From positions 24,118,001-24,182,000 of the forward strand of contig OX597837.1 of assembly GCA_951406725.2 (NCBI GenBank): a stretch of 64,000 nt of DNA. Direction: 5' to 3'. The number at the start of each line of letters is the position of its first letter. Position 1 is the first letter of the stretch. This DNA comes from Octopus vulgaris. Its lineage: Eukaryota. Position numbers and translations under genes: made by a program. This document shows positions 6,558 through 59,160 of the stretch, one piece after another. Under the pieces are notes generated by a model, which saw nothing but the letters and a program-made list of their open reading frames with translations, did no database searches and had not been told where the DNA came from.

Positions 6558-6960
6558 AGGCGGCGAGCTGGCAGAAACGTTAGCACGCCGGGCGAAATGC
6601 GTAGCCGTATTTCGTCTGCCGTTACGTTCTGAGTTCAAATTCCGCCGAGGTCGACTTTGCCTTTCATCCTTTCGGGGGTCGATTAAATAAGTACCAGTTA
6701 TGCACTGGGGTCGATATAATCGACTTAATCTGTTTGTCTGTCCTTGTTTGTCCCCTCTGTGTTTAGCCCCTTGTGAGTAGTAAAGAAATGGGTATTTCGT
6801 CTGCTGTTACGTTCTGAGTTCAAATTCCGCCAAGGTCGACTTTGCCTTTCATCCTTTCGGGGTCGATTAAATAAGTACCAGTTATGCACTGGGGTCGATG
6901 TAATCGACTTAATCCGGTTGTCTGTCCTTGTTTGTCCCCTCTGTGTTTAGCCCCAAAGAA
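6558..6960 (+). mobile_element. tRNA-derived SINE family D, head plus two body units
   Basis: GGCGGCGAGCTGGCAGAAACGTTAGC head, GAGTTCAAATTCC B box, GTCGACTTTGCCTTTCATCCTTTCGGGGTCGAT core. The body is repeated. Confidence 0.85.
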
Positions 6961-7356: not shown

Positions 7357-8359
7357 AGTAAAGAAATAGGTATGTTATTGCGTGAACGAGCAGTGTGTGG
7401 GTATAATGTCGTATGGTGGAATGGCTGAACAGTAGAATGTGCCACTTTAAATTTACATCCTTTTCTCGAAAAAACTTTGTTTTCAGTTTTAAAAAATACA
7501 AATATAATAATAATAAATATCCAAATGGCTTTGTAGCCTCGAGTATTAAGGTTTATGTCGTCGGATTATGCGATTAACGGGAATTTTGTTGAAAGGGTAT
7601 TAGGAAGGTTTCTGAATCTACATAGCAAAATAGTTCAGCCCATGCACACGTCATCGCCGCCAGCACTGCTGTCCTTCACCCCTCTGTTCGTGTCCCCGCC
7701 CTGTTGTCTTTACTACCGCGATCACCCCCACCTCTCCCTACATCTGTTTTCTACTATCTCTGGCCTTGTTTCCTACCATCCTTTCCTTCGGGCATGCAAA
7801 TCCTGCACGAAGTATAAAACCTCAATGAAACAGAAGGTGTCAAGACAACTCACAAAAAAAAAAGACCAATTCTCTCCCCCTCTCCTTTCCCTTTTCAACA
7901 CACTGCAGGAAAAACATTCACCCAACACACAAAACACTCAACATAGCTAGAACCATTGCACTCCCACACAATGACTGACAATATCTGATGACACCTTACA
8001 ATAATTCATACAGTTGCGTTACGTCGTAGGATATACGTTAACCGCCCTTTCTAACTCGGCGGTGAACTGGAGACCAAAAAGAAAATTCCTAGCGTATTTC
8101 ACACGGAAATAAAATACAATGTTAAGTTAAAAATATAGAAAAGTTGTTTTTTTTAAAAAAGCTATTGCTTATTTTATTACTCTACTCTTTTACTTGTTTC
8201 AGTCATGTGTGTATGTGGATATATGTGTGTGTATGTGTGTATGTGTATGTGTGTGTATGTATATATTTTTTTGTGTATATGTGTATGTGTGGTCGTGTGT
8301 GTGTGTATATATACATGTGTGTGTGTATATGTATGTGCATGTATATGTGTATGTATATA

Positions 8360-11813
<3,454 letters not shown>

Positions 11814-23612: not shown

Positions 23613-23654
<42 letters not shown>

Positions 23655-23806
23655 CATGTCACTGCTTGGAATCGAACTCGGAATCTTGGGGTTAGTAGCC
23701 CGCGCTCTTAACCACAGCCGAAACGTTGTGTTAACAACAAACAAGATGAGGACGATCGTTCACTTGGCTTCCACGTTAGAGCAAACTTTTACAGCTATGA
23801 ATCTAT

Positions 23807-24109
23807 GAAAACAATTGCAGTGTGGAAGGTGTTTGTAAGCCATTTAAGAAACACACAAAAAGCCGTTCGATTCACTTCAACATTTAAGTTTAATTTGTCA
23901 AAAGATGCAGCACGGATTTTTGTCAGTGAACAGGTTGCGGTCTGATAGTGACGAAAATATTTTGACAAATTAAACTTAAATGTTGAAGTGAATCGAACGG
24001 CTTTTGTGTGTTTCTTAAATGGCTTACAAACACCTTCCACGCTGCAATTGTTTTCGTTTCAGCACACGATCTCAGATCAAATCACTTGCTATGCAAGTAC
24101 ATCTCCGTA
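23807..24109. mobile_element. Fold-back element (~97-bp arms) with TSD, probable Penelope-like remnant
   Basis: 23807-23903 is the reverse complement of 23960-24055. aatctatgaa occurs at 23800-23809 and 24110-24119. Confidence 0.7.
23919..23969 (+). ncRNA. Minimal type I hammerhead-like ribozyme, G3-C8 core variant
   Basis: tttgtca-GTGAACA-g-gttgc/gtgac-GAAA-atat-TT-tgacaaa. Confidence 0.55.
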
Positions 24110-24307
24110 AATCTATGAATACAATTGGATGAAAGGTGAGGCCAACAATACTGATTTTCTCAATATACAATATTTGTGGAGAAGAGATGTTTATGATGTC
24201 CAATAATACAATGAGTTATAAGTTTCATAACACACCCACACACACACACATTAACAAACTCGTGCAGAATCACATTTTATCTTTAAAATACACGTATGTT
24301 TCTTTAC

Positions 24308-24372
24308 CTGAATGTCATACTTCCTATACGTACAAACACTGCGAAGGGGTTCTTCTTCCAAAGATCCGAAAG
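24308..24372 (-). CDS. Mucin exon, 65 nt, SEA middle (LSDLWKKNPFAVFVRIGSMTF+AG)
   Basis: Reads tgaatttctag|CTTTCG...TTCAG|gtaaag. Phase 0 in and phase 2 out, which bridges the flanking exons exactly. Confidence 0.85.
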
Positions 24373-24496
24373 CTAGAAATTCAACATACAAACAAGAAAT
24401 ACTTAAAGGGTTATACTTTAAAACAAAATAATAGGAAATCCACCACCGCCCGTCCCGTGAGCAAAATTTTGGTGACTATTCAGATATAAACCCACC

Positions 24497-24659
24497 TTAT
24501 TTACATTATTTACATTACTTACATTTGATGGATATTTGTCCTCGACTAGTTTGTTGTTAACACAACGTTTCGGCTGATATACCCTCCAGCCCTCTTCAGG
24601 TGTCTTGGGGAAATTTCGAACCTGGGTTCTCATTCCTAATGTATTCTTCGATGTTGTTG

Positions 24660-24696
<37 letters not shown>

Positions 24697-25110
24697 CATT
24701 ATTTTTATTATTATTATCATTATTATTATCATTATTATTATTACTATTATTATTATTATTATTATTATTATCATTATTATTATTATTATCATTATTATTA
24801 TCATTATTATTATTACTATTATTATTATTATTATTATTATTATCATTATTTTTATTATTATTATCATTATTATTATCATTATTATTATTACTATTATTAT
24901 TATTATTATTATTATTATATTATCATTATCATTATTATTGTTGTTCATGTCACTGCTTGGAATCGAACTCGGAATCTTGGGGTTAGTAGCCCGCGCTCTT
25001 AACCACAGCCGAAACGTTGTGTTAACAACAAACAAGATGAGGACGAATATCCGTCGAATGTAAATAATGTAAACAATGTACATAATTCCTCATCTCTTAA
25101 ATATAGAACT
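24497..25110 (-). mobile_element. Composite element: inverted tail copy, tRNA-like head, (AAT)n, hammerhead-containing tail
   Basis: Head 25007-24949 with B box GAGTTCGATTCC. Microsatellite 24940-24652. Hammerhead 24604-24559. The tail is repeated in inverted orientation at 25006-25085. Confidence 0.7.
24559..24604 (-). ncRNA. Minimal type I hammerhead ribozyme (Penelope type)
   Basis: gacac-CTGAAGA-g-ggctg/cagcc-GAAA-cg-TT-gtgtt. Palindromic AACGTT stem III. Confidence 0.7.
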
Positions 25111-25562
25111 ATAAAACCCACCTGTTGACAATTATATTTTTTTCGAAAATCCACGGGAGGTCTCTTCCCCTGGGAAAGATTAAGCAAAGCGCAAGAAATA
25201 CCATGCTGTAGGGGTATTCAAATCGTAACGAACCACCTGGTTAATTAATGCACAGTACCATTTACATCAATGTTGTAGTTTAGTGTGATTGCGTGCATAA
25301 CCATAAATTTGTGGAATTGATGGACTCGTTAGTTTCTCTCAACACAAGTGAATTCCGCCATACCACCCGAACCCCTCGTGGATTGGATTCTTATACATTT
25401 GCAGTTCGACCCCTGCTACTAATATTCCCCATCGCTTGCTTTTTAGAAAACATTATCATGCGTTGTTTATATACAGACGTTTTACTCTGCGAACAGTTGT
25501 TAATGTATGGCTGAGCGCAGGCTGACATATTTAGAGTAGCGAGCGAAAATAAAAAAAAGTTT

Positions 25563-28300: not shown

Positions 28301-28632
28301 GAGGGACATGATATTAATGAGACAAACAAGCAATATGACAAACATGGAGGCAGATAGATAAATAGAGAGAGAGAGAAATAGACTGAATGGCAGGCAGAAA
28401 ATTGGAAAAGAAATGGAAAAAAAAATAAAATAAGAGACTGGTAGACAGAAACTGATAGAGACGAAATTGATGGCAAGAGAAATTTATCTGTTATCTGGTA
28501 GGCGGACAGAGACAAGACAGACAAACAAAGAGACAGTTAGGCTGATGGAGAGACAGACCAAGAGAAAGAAACAGCAATGGCAGACTGGTAGGGAGACAGA
28601 GAAAGCTAGGCGGATAAATAAAGATTACCAAC

Positions 28633-31600
28633 CAATGTATTTAGTTGTTTCTGCAACTCGAAATATTCTGTAGAATTCGTGTCTGCAAGTTCTTTCGACC
28701 AAACGGCACCTTTTATTATAGTAAATCTTCCATTAATCGTCAGTGGTCCTCCTTGTATTTCTGCTTCAGGAGTGCTTTTCCATGGAATTTCTGTAGAGAA
28801 ACTACTACTTGTAGTAGCATCATTATTTGTAGTAGTAGGAGTAGTAGTAGAAGTAGTAGCAGTAGCAACCTTTTCAGTAGTAGTGGCTGTTGTAGTTGCT
28901 ACTGTTGTTGTTGTAGTTGCTGTTGTTGTTGTTGTTGTCGCTGCAGAAGTGCTTGCTTCACTAGTGTCTATTGTACTACGTTCAGTGGAACCCAGTGTGG
29001 ATGAGGGAGTAATCGGTGTGCTTCCTGTTTCTGTATCATTTATGTTGTGGGGCTTTGACTTGGTTGACAAAATGTGCGTAGTGCTGCTTGTGGCCGTTGT
29101 CAAACCTTCAGAACTTGTCTCGGTCACCGTTTCATTATCTGTCGTAGATGATGTAGGAAGCTGGGACCGCGATGTTGTAGGTTCGGTTGTAGAGGGAGTG
29201 TTTGTAGATTCAACCGTAGGCGAGGTTGTTGGAGATTCGGTTGTGGGTGGGGTTGTTGGAAGTTCGGTTGCAGGAAAGGTTATCGGCGGTTCGGTTGTGG
29301 GCGAGGTGGTCGACGGTTCGGTTGCAGGGAGAGTTGTTGAATGTTCGGTTGTTAGCGGAGTTGTTGGAGGTTCGGTTGTGGGCGGGGTCGTCTGAGGTTC
29401 GGTTGCAGGAAAGGTTGTTGGAGGTTCGGTTGTGGGCGGGGTCGTCGGAGGTTCGGTTGTGGGCAGGGTCGTTAGAGGTTCGGTTGCAGGAAGGGTTGTT
29501 GGAGATTCAGTTGTGGGCGGAGTTGTTGGAGGTTCGGTTGTGGGAGGGGTCGTTGGAGGTTGGGTTGCAGGAAAGGTTGTTAGAGGTTCGGTTGTGGGCG
29601 GAGTTGAGGGTTCGGTTGTAGATGGGGTTGGTGGAGGTTCGGTTGTGGGAAGAGTTGTTGGAGGCTCAGTTGTGGACGGGGTTGCTGAAGGTTCGGTTGT
29701 GGACGGGATTGCTGGGGGTTCGGTTATGAGTGAGGTTGTTGGGAGTTCGGTTGTGGGCGGAGTTGTAGGTTCGGTTGTGGGAAGGATTGTTGTAGCTTCG
29801 GACATGAGCGGGGTTATTGAAGGCTCAGTTGTGGCTGGGGTTGTAGATTCGGTTGTGGATGGGATTGTTGGAAGTTCGATTATGGGCGAGGTTGCTGGAG
29901 GTTCGGTTGTGGGCGAGGTTGTTGGAGGTTCGGTTGTGGGTGGGGTTGTTGGAGGTTCATTTGTGAGCAGAGTGGTTGCGGTCTGAGTTATTACTGAATC
30001 TGTTGAAGGTACGGTTGTGTTCGAAGTCGCTGAAGATTCACTTGTACCCGGGGTGGTTGAAGACTCAAATATTACAGGGAAGACTGAAGTTTCTGTTGTT
30101 GCTTCGTTTGTGGACGATGACCTGGATGTAATTGTAACGGGTGGAGATTGGTGGCTGATCGGGGTGATTGTAGATGGCTCAGATGTGGTTGAAATGTATG
30201 AAGGCTCGTATGTGGTTGAGTTAGTAGGAAATTCCGGTGTGATCGAGGCGGATGCAGACTCGGATGTAGCTGAGCTGGCTACAGCAGTTTGTGAGCTCAA
30301 AGGTACCTGAACAGTTGAAGAAAAACTTGAAAGTAATGTGTCCGATGTAGCTTGAGATAACGTTGATGATTCATTTACCGTTAGACCGACTGATTCGCCT
30401 GTTGATGCTACAGTGGCACTCTGAGTTGTTATAAATGACTCACCAGTGTCCCGAGTGGCTGTTGAAAAATTTGTTATGTCTAGGTTGAGTGTTGAGGTTT
30501 CAGTAATGCTCTGTGTAGCTGCTGAGGCATCAACGGTGCTCTGGTTGACTGTCGAGAAATCAAATGTGTTTTGGGGGAGAGTTGAGGATTCTGGTGAGCC
30601 TTCGGTTACTTTCGAGAACTCAGTTGTACCTTTTGTTTCTGTTGCAGTCTCAGTTGTATCTTGAAATGTTTTTGAAGACTCAAATGTGAAGTCAGTTGCT
30701 TGTGTAATAGGCGTTTCCTCTAAGAACTGAGTCGTTGTAGCCTGGGAAGTTGAAAAGGATGTAGTTTCTAAGTCGGTTGAAAATAACCCGAATGTGTGTG
30801 CTGCGGGAGTAGAGGGTTCATCTGTACTAGGAATGACTGTGGACGACTCAGACGTAGCCTGTACTGGTGTAGTAATTTCATTTGTGAATGATTCAGTTAT
30901 ATACTGAGACGACGATGATGATGAAGATGTTGATGATGGTGTTGATGATGACGACAACGATGACAATTCCCCATTGAAAAGAGTGGACTCAGGTGCTCTT
31001 GAAGTAGATGTAGGTTCTTCACTTGTAGACTGTGTATTTGTAAACTGCTCGACTGTTGACTGGATGGAGTGAACTGGTAATGTAACATTATGTGATTCAG
31101 TAGTTGACTGAAGGTCACTAGTTGGCCCCACTGACGGAACGTCTGTAGGCTGCTCAGTGCTAGACTGAGCAGCTGTAGTTTCCCCAACCGTAGTCAGCTC
31201 AACAGTAGCTGTTCCAGCTGCAGTCAAGTCAACTGTAGTTGGTTCAATTGTAGTCGGCTCATGTGTTGACTCAACTGTAGTCAGCTCAACTGTAGTCGGT
31301 TCAACTGTAGTCGGCTCAACTGTAGTCGGCTCAACTGTAGTCGGCTCAACTGTAGTCAGCTCAACTGTAGTCAGATCAACTGTAGTCGGCTCATTTGTTG
31401 TTGTCTCAACTGTAGTCAGCTCAACTGTTGTCCCAGTTATAGTTGCCTCAACTGTGCCTATTCGAGCAGTAGTCGGCTCAACTGTAGTTTTCTCCACTGT
31501 AGATGTCGGAGTTGTAGTTGCTTCAGCTGTGATTCTCCGAGCTGTAGTCGGCTCAACGGTAGCCGGTTCGACTGTGGTCGGCTCAACTGTAGTTTGCTCA

Positions 31601-34028
31601 ACTGTAGTCGGTTGAACTGTAGTTAGGTCAACTGTAGTCTGTTCAAGTGAAGTCGGCTCAACTGTAGTTGATTCAACTTTTATCAGGTCAATTGTTGTTG
31701 TCTCAGGTGTAGTCGTCTCAACTGTACGCGGTTCAGTTGTCTCAGTTGTAGTTTTTTCGACTGTGTCTATCCGAGATGTAGTCGGTTTAACTCTAGTTGA
31801 CTGAACTGTAGTCGACTCAACTGTAGTTAGCTCAACTGTAGTCGGCTCAACTGTAGTCAGCTCAACCGTAGTTGTCCTAGCTGTAGTCGGCTCACCTGTA
31901 GTTAGCTCAATTATAGTCGGCTCAACTGTAGTTAGCTCAACTGTAGTCGGCTCAACTGTAGTTGTCCTAGATGTAGTCGGCTCAACTGTAGTTATCCTAG
32001 CTGTAGTCGGCTTACCTGTAGTTAGCTCAACTGTAGTCGGCTCAACTGTAGTTGTCCTAGCTGTAGTCGGCTCAACTGTAGTTAGCTCATTTATAGTCGG
32101 CTCAACTGTAGTCAGCTCAGCTGTAGTCGACTCAACTGTAGTCGGCTTATTTGTTGTTATCCTAGTTGTTGTGGGCTCAACTGTTGTTCCAGCAGTGGTT
32201 GCCTCAACTGTGCTTGTTTGAGCTGTAGTTGGCACATCCGTTGTCGACTCAACTGTAGTTGTCCCAGTTGTAGTTGACTGAACTGTAGTCGGCTCAGTTG
32301 TTGTGGCCTCAAGTGTAGACGTCTCAACTGGAGTTGTTCTCGCCGTAGTTGCTTCGGTAGTACTTCTCTGAGTCATAGCCGGCTCAACTGTTGTGGTCTC
32401 CGCTGTAGTCAGCCTGGCTGTAGTTGTCGCCGATGTAGTCGGCTCAAGTGTAGTCGCTTCAGTTGTGGTTGTGTCAGCTATAACTGTTTCAGCTCCAGGC
32501 AGTTTGTTTGTGGTCAACGTAGCTGTAGTTGAGCTAGCTGTAGGTAGTTCAAACGTGTCCGTCCGTGTTGTTGTCGGTTTAACTGTAGTTGTCTCAGTTG
32601 TAAACTGAGAAGGGGTTGTCAGTTCAGTTGGTGACTGGGAAGCTGTATGCTGATTAGTTGTAACTGGAATGACAGAAGCCGCTTTGCTCTCAGAGTGAGG
32701 GACTATAATATCAGATGTTATATGCTGATTGGTTGTGTATTGCTTATCTGCAGACGAAATAGTTGTAAATGATTCGGAGACTGACTGAGTGGCTGTAGAC
32801 TGAGTGTGTGTAGATTGAGTAGTTACAGATGAACTCATTGTAGACTGAGTCTCTGTAGAAGGCTCAGCAGAAGAACGAGTGACTGTTGACTTAGAGTCAG
32901 TACTCTGAGTAATCGTAGATTGTGTAGTTGTAGACTTTGGCACTAGAGTTTGAGAGTCTGTGGATTTGGTGGTCACGGACTGGGCAGCCGAAAATTGCGT
33001 GGTCGTTGACTGAGTTGTCGCAGCCTGGGTAGCTGCAGCGGCATTAGCTGTGGCCTGAGCAACTGTCGACTGAACTACCGTAGTCGTAGGAACTATAGAT
33101 GAATTAGGTTTAGTGCTAAAATCTAAGGAAACATCATTTGGTTTATTCGTTGGCAATTTTGTATTTGTTGTTGGATGAGTCCCTGAGAAAGTTGTTGATA
33201 ATGATGGTGGTATGGCTGATGTTTCCGTTTCAGCGACAAGATTTGCGTTATTGAGAATGGCTGCCTCTTTTGTTGGAACCCTTTTGGAAGTTGTCGGAAT
33301 CACCCGTGAAATCATTGTTGTTTTTGATGCTATCGTCTGCGGCACTGAAGTTATCTGCGGGTTGATCGCTGTCGTCTGGTATTCAGCATAGCCCACTAAC
33401 GAATCACTCTCTTTTAGATTCAATTTCACTGTTTCTGGAGAGACACCAAACGAATTATCATTGTCTTCTAAATAAGTTTTCAATGAAAATTCTTGCTGTG
33501 AATCATCATTCGTTTGGTTATTTTGCTTCTTTTCTTCATGCAACGATTCACTGCGAACTGTGGGGTTCATTGTAGCTACAAAATGTTCTGCTCCCTGCAT
33601 AATAACTGGAGTATTTACTTCCAAATGTGATTTGTCTGAAGTAACATTTTTCACAATTGTCGCTTCGTGATCAGTGGATGTAAAGATTCTCGAATCGTTC
33701 TTAACTGGAGCCGCTATTTTCAATGCTTGCCGTGCTTCGTCTACAACATTTGCCGAAGTAATTTCCAGCAGAGGATGTGCAATAGTTGCAAGCGACAACG
33801 AACTTGGCGTCGTTACAAACCGATGTACATCGTTAGGTTTAACAGTCGTTTGACTAAGAGAAGTAGCTGTATGAAAGATATTCGAGACGAAACTTAAATG
33901 CTTCTTTTCATCTAAACCTGGTTCAGTCGAACTAAAAGAATCCGGAAATTTTGAAAATGGCAACTCTTCGCCTTGATAAAACTGATTGGTTGGTGAAGTA
34001 TAGTTTCCAGTAAAATCTGCTCGGGACT
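28633..34028 (-). CDS. Large mucin (PTS) exon of a transmembrane SEA-domain mucin, ending in the first part of the SEA domain
   Basis: Lies within the 1825-aa ORF 28606-34083. Thr/Ser/Pro/Glu-rich with TTVEP and PTTEPPTT repeats. Acceptor ttttttccttgtcttacag|AG (phase 1) at 34028. Ends ...RFTIIKGAVWSKELADTNSTEYFELQKQLNTL|gttggt (phase 0), which resembles a SEA N-terminus. Confidence 0.9.
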
Positions 34029-34436
34029 CTGTAAGACAAGGAAAAAAATGCTGTAGTATTATAATGGTTTCGAATTTTGGCACAGGGCCTGCAATTTTAG
34101 GGGGCGAGGGTTGTCGGTGTAATTTATTTTATCGTCCCCGAAAGGATGAAAGGCAAAGTCAACTTCGGTGGAATCTGAACTCAAAACAAAACCGGAAGAA
34201 AAGACGCTAAGCATTTTGTCCGACATGCTAATGATTCTGCCAGATCACCACCTTAATAACAACAACAACAATAATGATAACAATAATAATAATAATAAAT
34301 ATAGAAATAAAAAATAGAAGAGTAGCATAGTTATCATGTGAAATTGGTTGAACGATATTTCAGCATATAGCGTGCCTTCCACAGGTTCAAAAAATTACTA
34401 TTTTTTATTTCTGTATAACCTCAGTCCTATATAATC

Positions 34437-34840: not shown

Positions 34841-35217
34841 ATTACAGCCTTGAATGGGGTACTCCATGCTGCTGCAAGCTAGACAGAAAGGCAGAAATAA
34901 AGAACGGAAAAAGATCGACCAAGCAGTGGTACTTCGTTTATCGACCCTCGGAAGGAGGAAAGGCAAAGCTGACCTGGACAGGATTTGAACGCATAACATC
35001 AAGAATCCGAACTGATCATGGTTACAGAATTACAGCTTTTAATGGGGTATTCCATGCTGCTGCAATCTAGACAGAAAGACAGAAATAAAGAACGGAAAAA
35101 GCTCGACCAAGCAGTGGTACTTTGTTTATCGACCCTCGGAAGGAGGAAAGGCAAAGCTGACCTGGACGGGATTTGAACGCATAACACCAAGAATCCGAAC
35201 TGATCATGGTTACAGAT
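34841..35217. repeat. Tandem duplication, 2 x ~187 bp, containing a diverged SINE core
   Basis: ATTACAGC...GATCATGGTTACAGA is repeated starting at 34841 and 35028. Confidence 0.9.
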
Positions 35218-58560: not shown

Positions 58561-59160
58561 AGGCGGCGAGCTGGCAGAAACGTTAGCACGCCGGGCGAAA
58601 TGCGTAGCCGTATTTCGTCTGCCGTTACGTTCTGAGTTCAAATTCCGCCGAGGTCGACTTTGCCTTTATTCCTTTCGGGGTCGATAAATTAAGTACCAGT
58701 TACGCACTGGGGTCGATGTAATCGACTTAATCCGTTTGCCTGTCCTTGTTTGTCCTCCCTGTGTTTAGCCCCTTGTGAGTAGTAAAGAAATAGGTATTTC
58801 GTCTGCCGTTACGTTCTGAGTTCAAAATCCGCCGAGGTCGACTTTGCCTATCATCCTTTCGGGGTCGATTAGATAAGCACCAGTTACGCACTAGGGTCTA
58901 TATAATCGACTTAATCCGTGTGTCTGTCCTTGTTTATCCCCTCTGTGTTTAGCCTCTTGTGGGTAGTAAAGAAATAGGTATTTCGTCTGCCACTGCGTTC
59001 TGAGTTCAAATTCCGCCGAGGTCGACTTTGCCTTTCATCCTTTCGGGGTCGATAAATTAAGTACCAGTTACGCACTGGGGTCGATATAATCGACTTAATC
59101 CCTTTGTCTGTCCTTGTTTGTCCTCTCTATGCTTAGCCCCTTGTGGGCAATAAAGAAATA
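58561..59160 (+). mobile_element. SINE family D trimer (one head plus three 184-bp body units)
   Basis: GTATTTCGTCTGCC starts at 58610, 58794 and 58978. Confidence 0.9.

Follow-up and report, generated by a model that had tools for sequence, protein, structure and literature searches.

The insertion described here lies in a stretch of 64,000 nucleotides of the Octopus vulgaris genome (contig OX597837.1, positions 24,118,001 to 24,182,000, from here on the window) and is, with hardly any doubt, a stub left by a coding Penelope/Poseidon element, of which it represents the terminal repeat (pLTR). The tRNA-like head, the (AAT)n linker and the hammerhead-bearing tail together are the whole pLTR of that element. 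Every part of the anatomy given in the initial annotation of the insertion (head, B box, (AAT)n, hammerhead, tail and inverted copy) was found. The positions, counted from the first nucleotide of the window, are the following:

23649-23755, minus strand: local duplicate of 24940-25046, the junction of inverted arm and head (107 nt, 100% identity)
24488-24497, no strand: left copy of the target-site duplication AAACCCACCT, 10 bp, exact
24497-24654, minus strand: forward-arm tail, covering family tail positions 1-158 at the 3' side of the pLTR
24559-24604, minus strand: minimal type I hammerhead motif, predicted cut at 24564/24563
24633, minus strand: ATG of the first codons of the ORF, within the window tail; the frame 24418-25089 reads MRTQVRNFPKTPEEG...
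24655-24948, minus strand: (AAT/AAC)n linker, expanded in the window copy (TRF 24663-24939)
24945-25005, minus strand: tRNA-like head, 5'-truncated (family positions 16-76), with the A box cut off
24968-24960, minus strand: B box, present inside the window head
25006-25110, plus strand: inverted second arm (tail positions 79-183), beginning in stem II and reaching the full 3' end
25114-25123, no strand: right copy of the target-site duplication AAACCCACCT, 10 bp, exact

Both arms, the head and the linker are enclosed in a single 10-bp target duplication, which extends to about 12-13 bp if one indel is allowed. In its layout the window copy is canonical: two pLTR arms inserted head-to-head, with the tail on one side only, as described for Penelope-like elements in PMC8557442 and PMC3846280. 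The inverted tail that caps the head does start in stem II, as had been annotated, but it is the forward arm, with about 25 nt missing relative to the full 3' end, and not the inverted arm, that is short at the 3' side. The same (AAT)n linker is a component of the pLTR in the coding copies. The window copy contains one complete hammerhead motif, of the type I minimal class described in the corresponding part of PMC4209133, with stems I and II of 5 bp each and a palindromic ACGT replacing stem III; the motif does not correspond to the monomer's minimum-energy fold (z -0.58). Rfam at the gathering score produced no match in the whole window, hammerheads included, an Rfam E-value scan of eight family loci returned microsatellite matches only, with neither tRNA nor hammerhead, and ARAGORN found no tRNA in the window.

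The junction of head and inverted tail had also been reported to recur at 23652-23755. The sequence present there is indeed identical, but it is a local duplicate and not an independent insertion. The arm/head junction, with up to one mismatch, has only two occurrences in 2.8 Gb, both in the window, and hence the second one is not independent evidence. The duplicate has no tail downstream, sits outside the target duplication, ends in a microsatellite and is 1.29 kb away from its source; it may have originated by a template switch or an assembly error. Regarding the surroundings, a Ser/Thr/Pro-rich repeat frame of 1840 amino acids occupies the minus strand from 28606 to 34128 and closes with the beginning of a probable SEA domain (Pfam E 0.0015, under the cut-off). 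This frame is a mucin-like exon, and the Penelope insertion is likely located in a downstream intron. An imperfect, MITE-like palindrome of about 250 bp (23807-24055, 84% between arms) is a dispersed repeat with further copies in L099, L121, L259, L089 and other loci. Tandem units of 184-188 bp, belonging to an abundant dispersed repeat, were observed at 6607-6954, 58610-59160 and 34841-35216, and a (TA)n tract of 3.5 kb with interspersed unique islands at 8342-11812.

The coding parent is recognizable on both sides of the head. A conserved stretch located 5' of the head in L026, L129, L130 and in RNA loose ends translates as the C-terminus of an endonuclease, and the head begins 29 nt past the stop codon of an RT/GIY-YIG frame in 28 of the 30 best loci for that ORF end, 27 of them identified by BLAST and L217 by eye. 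RT motifs lie upstream of the endonuclease region (RVT_1, E 2.4e-10). The GIY-YIG domain was assigned by alignment, and the Pfam GIY-YIG profile gave no match to the ORF of the element. A frame of 569 amino acids shows 37% identity, endonuclease region included, with an 836-amino acid Anolis protein, which we infer to be PAc; in a quick tree, made with no curated reference set, the ORF groups with the clade of the Anolis protein, apart from two Neptune-type ORFs. Of 58 genome matches to that protein, the 20 that were examined all belong to the tRNA-headed family. No intact ORF was found among the family copies examined, in which the longest stop-free match spans 569 amino acids. At the 5' side, the frame starts from an ATG that the tail contains 5' of the hammerhead, and it continues beyond the tail end. 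The tail frame is identical at 71 of 179 positions to the N-terminus of P0001, the nearest outside protein (E 5e-37), and the window arm at 11 of 16.

The full element is thereby ordered as head, (AAT)n, hammerhead, ORF (RT, GIY-YIG), stop, 29 nt, head, (AAT)n, hammerhead and tail. Two loci are near full-length: L350, whose order (ORF end, head, tail, ORF, head, tail) is that of a partial tandem, and L351 (inverted arm, tail end, 2.3-kb ORF body, head, tail). Partial tandems that take in the ORF start are found in L350, L410/L394, L425 and L426. The use of Penelope machinery, proposed from the sequence of the window, becomes firmer than it was, the tail being the pLTR and ORF start of a coding Penelope/Poseidon element. 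Neptune-type families, reached through the Pfam GIY-YIG profile, were considered as the partner and rejected, after 30 loci and 20 wider regions had shown no match to the tail; the stubs contained in two Neptune-type regions were there by chance. A young Neptune-type family with many open frames of 781 amino acids (L091, L092, L095 and others) and a second young family with open frames of 775 amino acids were also observed.

The family is abundant. The genome contains 8450 exact copies of a tail 25-mer and none of the reversed control, so the match of the tail is not due to chance; an exact 32-mer occurs 3269 times, again with none for the reversed control. In a rough estimate by one 25-mer each, the ORF end is found 697 times and the ORF start 19 times, and the ratio of stubs to ORF ends is about 12:1. 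The linkage of head and tail holds when counted beyond the window: in 24 of 28 head-picked loci a full tail follows on the same strand within 1.5 kb downstream of the head, in one it is partial and in three there is none. Patterns for the non-microsatellite sequence 5' of the tail retrieved only family copies among the 100 listed of 109 matches, and two patterns that allowed different loop lengths, meant to reveal sister hammerheads, matched 19 and 10 sequences, all of them copies of the tRNA-headed family. The hammerhead core and stem II are intact in 42 of 141 arms.

The pattern of insertion was analyzed in 142 distinct two-armed insertions, taken from 463 loci that were chosen by several searches and are non-random. 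Exactly one of the arms has a full 3' end in 119 of them, while 70.8 would be expected under independence, and a flanking duplication of at least 8 bp is present in 72 of the 142 versus 139 of 4830 mismatched pairs. The target duplications of the family peak at 10-13 bp. Sister arms are discordant at tail position 60 in 17 of 95 cases (42.8 expected), and at CpG-decay sites they behave independently. The diagnostic letters being usually common to sister arms and the CpG-decay sites independent, both arms mostly derive from one RNA or one master. The ends of the arms are also defined. Of 83 intact head starts in the position-ordered loci (C1), 72 end within about -7 to +3 and 11 continue into the ORF end, as do, by eye, about 4-6 of the 100 that come first among 1671 exact matches to the head. 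Among 91 tail-picked arms, 33 reach head positions 1-8 before stopping; the others stop within the head (13), the linker (25), the tail (17) or the ORF (3). Their 3' ends fall at tail positions 178-185 (about ORF +163) in 37 arms and at 141-160 in 51, the latter class being blurred by private changes in the reference used. According to the available part of PMC11167929, the Poseidon protein of anole nicks both strands, reverse transcription begins at two internal sites near the start of the ORF, which account for the tail, the first 172 nt of the ORF are required, and hammerhead cleavage is dispensable. The octopus 3' ends sit at places matching the anole start sites, and the hammerhead cut does not set the inserted ends.

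The insertion, a stub of the coding retrotransposon, is likely not a separate SINE. It had been annotated as a non-autonomous SINE with a borrowed Penelope tail, a proposal at odds with the head itself being part of the terminal repeat of the coding element. A SINE2 is defined by a head that is absent from its autonomous partner, and here the head follows the ORF stop. Neither do the short arms stand apart from those attached to an ORF, with which they share the same variants: A and G at head position 64 are found at 62:50 in short and 13:12 in ORF-attached arms, and A and T at tail position 60 at 44:70 and 6:18. In a larger set, 355 arms are nearly star-like, with three common non-CpG variants, none of them a stop, and 12 pairs having at least three rare variants in common against 3.6 by permutation, 3-4 of these pairs being duplicated loci. 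No clear separate SINE lineage was detected in 141 and 355 arms, a small sample of many thousands. That head and tail would be independent elements that both landed in one (AAT)n microsatellite is extremely improbable. The 3' ends of other AAT-tailed repeats do lie within the linker in L115, L116, L121, L131, L133 and L137, so that the linker looks like a hot spot of insertion or recombination, and 25 of the 91 arms could not be traced past it; but independent insertion is refuted by the order of ORF end, head, linker and tail, fixed in the coding copies, by the 24 of 28 linkage and by the single target duplication around both parts. An amended form of the initial annotation, with the entire unit derived from the pLTR, would have the stubs with intact A and B boxes transcribed by Pol III and copied in trans by the Penelope enzyme. 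This is unlikely, although the excess of tails (8450) over ORF ends (697) and ORF starts (19) favours it, 62 of 141 arms retain the two boxes intact and, as stated in PMC3846280, pLTR sequences are able to act in trans. The short arms are also slightly less diverged, with a distance from the column majority of 0.054 in 114 short arms and 0.064 in 27 ORF-attached ones, a gap that may reflect how the loci were picked, and two haplotypes (9 and 7 arms) are restricted to short arms, with 0 of 27 ORF-attached, which may be sampling. The similar frequency of the diagnostic variants in both kinds of arms, the three common variants and the few pairs sharing rare ones in the 355 arms argue against it, as does the lack of RNA past the last start site (the first 172 nt of the ORF) in the stubs, if the octopus enzyme resembles that of anole.

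The A and B boxes of the family head fit the consensus and lie at tRNA spacing, the window copy being without its A box. The best alignments of the head with host tRNA genes reach z 6.4-8.3 against shuffled tRNA genes, the closest being Arg, with Thr, Cys and Ala near (26 distinct genes, few isotypes). The arms have a sharp 5' edge located 14 nt upstream of a perfect A box, and the 5' end of the RNA would somewhat probably be a Pol III start. An RNase P-type cut at the start of the tRNA-like segment was discarded, many arms reaching -7, unlike a cut at +1. Pol III terminates at oligo-T, and for this reason T runs were counted in the element; counted by eye, a run of at least T4 follows within 30 nt downstream in 23 of 30 host tRNA loci. 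The sense strand of L351 (2620 nt) has no T4 run versus 32 A4 runs, G4 runs also being rare (1), and 4.7 T4 runs would be expected by base shuffle. L350 and L448 have 2 and 3 T4 runs, as expected from later mutation, and 162 distinct family hits contain 0.36 per kb, with no common site, the most frequent ones recurring in 4 of 54 copies and in 4 of 31. In nine other RT families, each taken by one representative (eight from the same genome and one Poseidon-type metagenome contig), T4 runs number 1.0-5.3 per kb and the longest T4-free stretch is 871 nt, and the sole unrelated Poseidon-type control with DNA, L467, has 7 runs. Searches for the DNA behind the nearest outside proteins turned up one distant locus and nothing closer. 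The absence of T4 has a P of about 0.001 from the T4:T3 ratio of the nine control families, of 0.035 by dinucleotide shuffle and, when synonymous codons are shuffled and four segments multiplied, of about 0.08. Given its own composition, the element would thus lack T4 with moderate improbability, though these two last nulls absorb any selection already acting on the sequence. The missing T4 runs are suggestive of reading by Pol III, short of proof, and the sequence signs make it plausible, in an indirect way, that Pol III drives the element.

A tentative reading of these signs is that an autonomous coding retrotransposon would be read end to end by Pol III through a tRNA-type promoter in its terminal repeat; with the same reserve, the element would have purged oligo-T terminators from the 2.6-kb coding strand and would shed thousands of SINE-like stubs. 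The RNAs made by Pol III are uncapped, which leaves the translation of a Pol III-made ORF unexplained, and a cap makes the translation of a coding RNA easier, a point counted for transcription by Pol II. In such a case the same Penelope element would carry the tRNA-like segment as a passenger, for instance an old captured SINE, which is rather doubtful, and so is the corresponding transcription, in which Pol II would work from the pLTR or the RNA would arise through read-through, with the edge of the arms representing a Pol II start or a palindrome fold-back. Fold-back letters are found at no fewer than 16 of 83 head starts, that is, at least at these, and the P of 0.035-0.08 for the absence of T4 under composition-aware nulls is compatible with the passenger. 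Palindromes at the 5' ends of pLTRs, and self-priming, are known from rotifer Penelopes, and a sharp 5' edge does not need Pol III because known pLTRs begin with palindromes and contain Pol II-like motifs (both from PMC3846280). Nevertheless, the hairpin at the head start is weak (-9.6 kcal/mol) and stronger stems inside the unit have no comparable pile-up of arm ends, the edge lies 14 nt ahead of a perfect A box, and the controls provide at most 871 nt free of T4 against 2.6 kb.

The RNA data consisted of three raw, unstranded runs from a related organism, with thousands of family reads. Between 85 and 87% of these reads continue into unlike sequence, and in two of the runs the RNA depth on L351 tracks the DNA depth, dropping from the 3' repeat to where the ORF begins. 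No pile-up of read starts or ends was seen on the short unit in the three runs, and so no discrete transcript. The family reads stem from embedded copies and are uninformative on Pol III or on cleavage; with these copies dominant in the three unstranded runs, no read ended at the predicted hammerhead cut.

The reading by Pol III, combined with the properties of the anole protein, would give a likely route to the stubs. By analogy with the available part of PMC11167929, the octopus enzyme would nick both target strands and start at about 135 and about 163 nt into the ORF. The transcript, presumably made by Pol III, would be reverse-transcribed from these two internal sites to the 5' end of the RNA. 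Priming in the 5' repeat would leave about 280 nt to the RNA 5' end, at position -7, generating a SINE-like stub, and the small palindrome at -7 would allow the cDNA to fold back or to join the second arm. Priming in the downstream repeat would instead be followed by copying into the ORF, producing the rarer long copies. In a separate group of loci (L387, L388, L390, L391, L392, L396 and L398) the tail enters the ORF for 75-255 nt and then returns to head, linker or tail, in some cases switching at a short shared word, suggestive either of template jumping to short RNAs or of internal deletion.

The pattern of insertion is that of an ordinary Penelope, and its unusual features are the tRNA-like segment that sits in a coding element's terminal repeat and the missing T runs. 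The family may be identical with one of the named octopus SINEs or with a Repbase or Dfam entry; its annotation should read Penelope element and not SINE. If Pol III reads the ORF, this would be a natural and unusual case of a coding RNA made by Pol III, and the origin of SINE-like elements would become testable; the shedding of stubs would, if true, be a ready route for SINEs to arise from their own partner. Even if Pol III does not read the element, the 142 two-armed insertions, in which a long end is paired with a short one, support, in a genome, the two internal start sites determined in vitro for anole. In the full-text literature searched, a scope that leaves most subscription papers and repeat databases outside, no tRNA-headed Penelope pLTR or Pol III-read Penelope ORF was found.

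The octopus family can be compared with several known systems, as these appear in the accessible parts of the sources cited. The animal non-LTR retrozymes (PMC7229834; bioRxiv 10.64898/2026.07.22.740005) and the non-autonomous Chlamys/MRC1 (PMC8557442) are likewise short non-coding relatives of pLTRs moved by Penelope-type enzymes. However, the retrozymes form head-to-tail arrays set by two hammerheads, whereas the octopus stubs are inverted pairs in which a lineage of their own was not seen. Identity with a non-LTR retrozyme was rejected, the window copy having one complete hammerhead and the usual layout of the family being an inverted pair. In Sm-alpha and Sj-alpha of Schistosoma (PMC6765202) a Pol III-type promoter is similarly followed by a hammerhead in a short repeat, but these are non-coding tandem repeats freed by cleavage, while in octopus the unit forms the end of a coding element, insertion is head-to-head and the ends do not correspond to the cut site. 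The TRIMp3 elements (Cassandra, Helenus and Ajax; PMC10886601) also have a probable Pol III promoter derived from a small RNA in the terminal repeat. They are non-coding LTR elements with PBS and PPT, whose autonomous partners, according to this 2024 paper, must use Pol II, while in octopus the tRNA-like segment is in the coding element itself. Identity with TRIMp3 was discarded on the inverted arms, the duplications peaking at 10-13 bp instead of 4-5 bp and the coding parent. The closest system is Penelope/Poseidon (Anolis, PMC11167929; Pen2a_Av of Adineta, PMC3846280), with which the octopus element shares the single ORF with RT and C-terminal GIY-YIG, a pLTR that overlaps the ORF start and carries the hammerhead there, the partial tandems, the inverted 5' pLTR with one-sided tail and short target duplication, and, as far as the three RNA runs go, the lack of RNA ends at the hammerhead cut. 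For known pLTRs, the available part of PMC3846280 describes TATA/Inr-like motifs rather than Pol III boxes. The octopus pLTR differs from those of Poseidon and Pen2a_Av in that its first parts are a tRNA-like segment with A and B boxes and a microsatellite, and the family in its TTTT-free sense strand and in the sharp-edged pLTR stubs that outnumber ORF ends by about 12:1.
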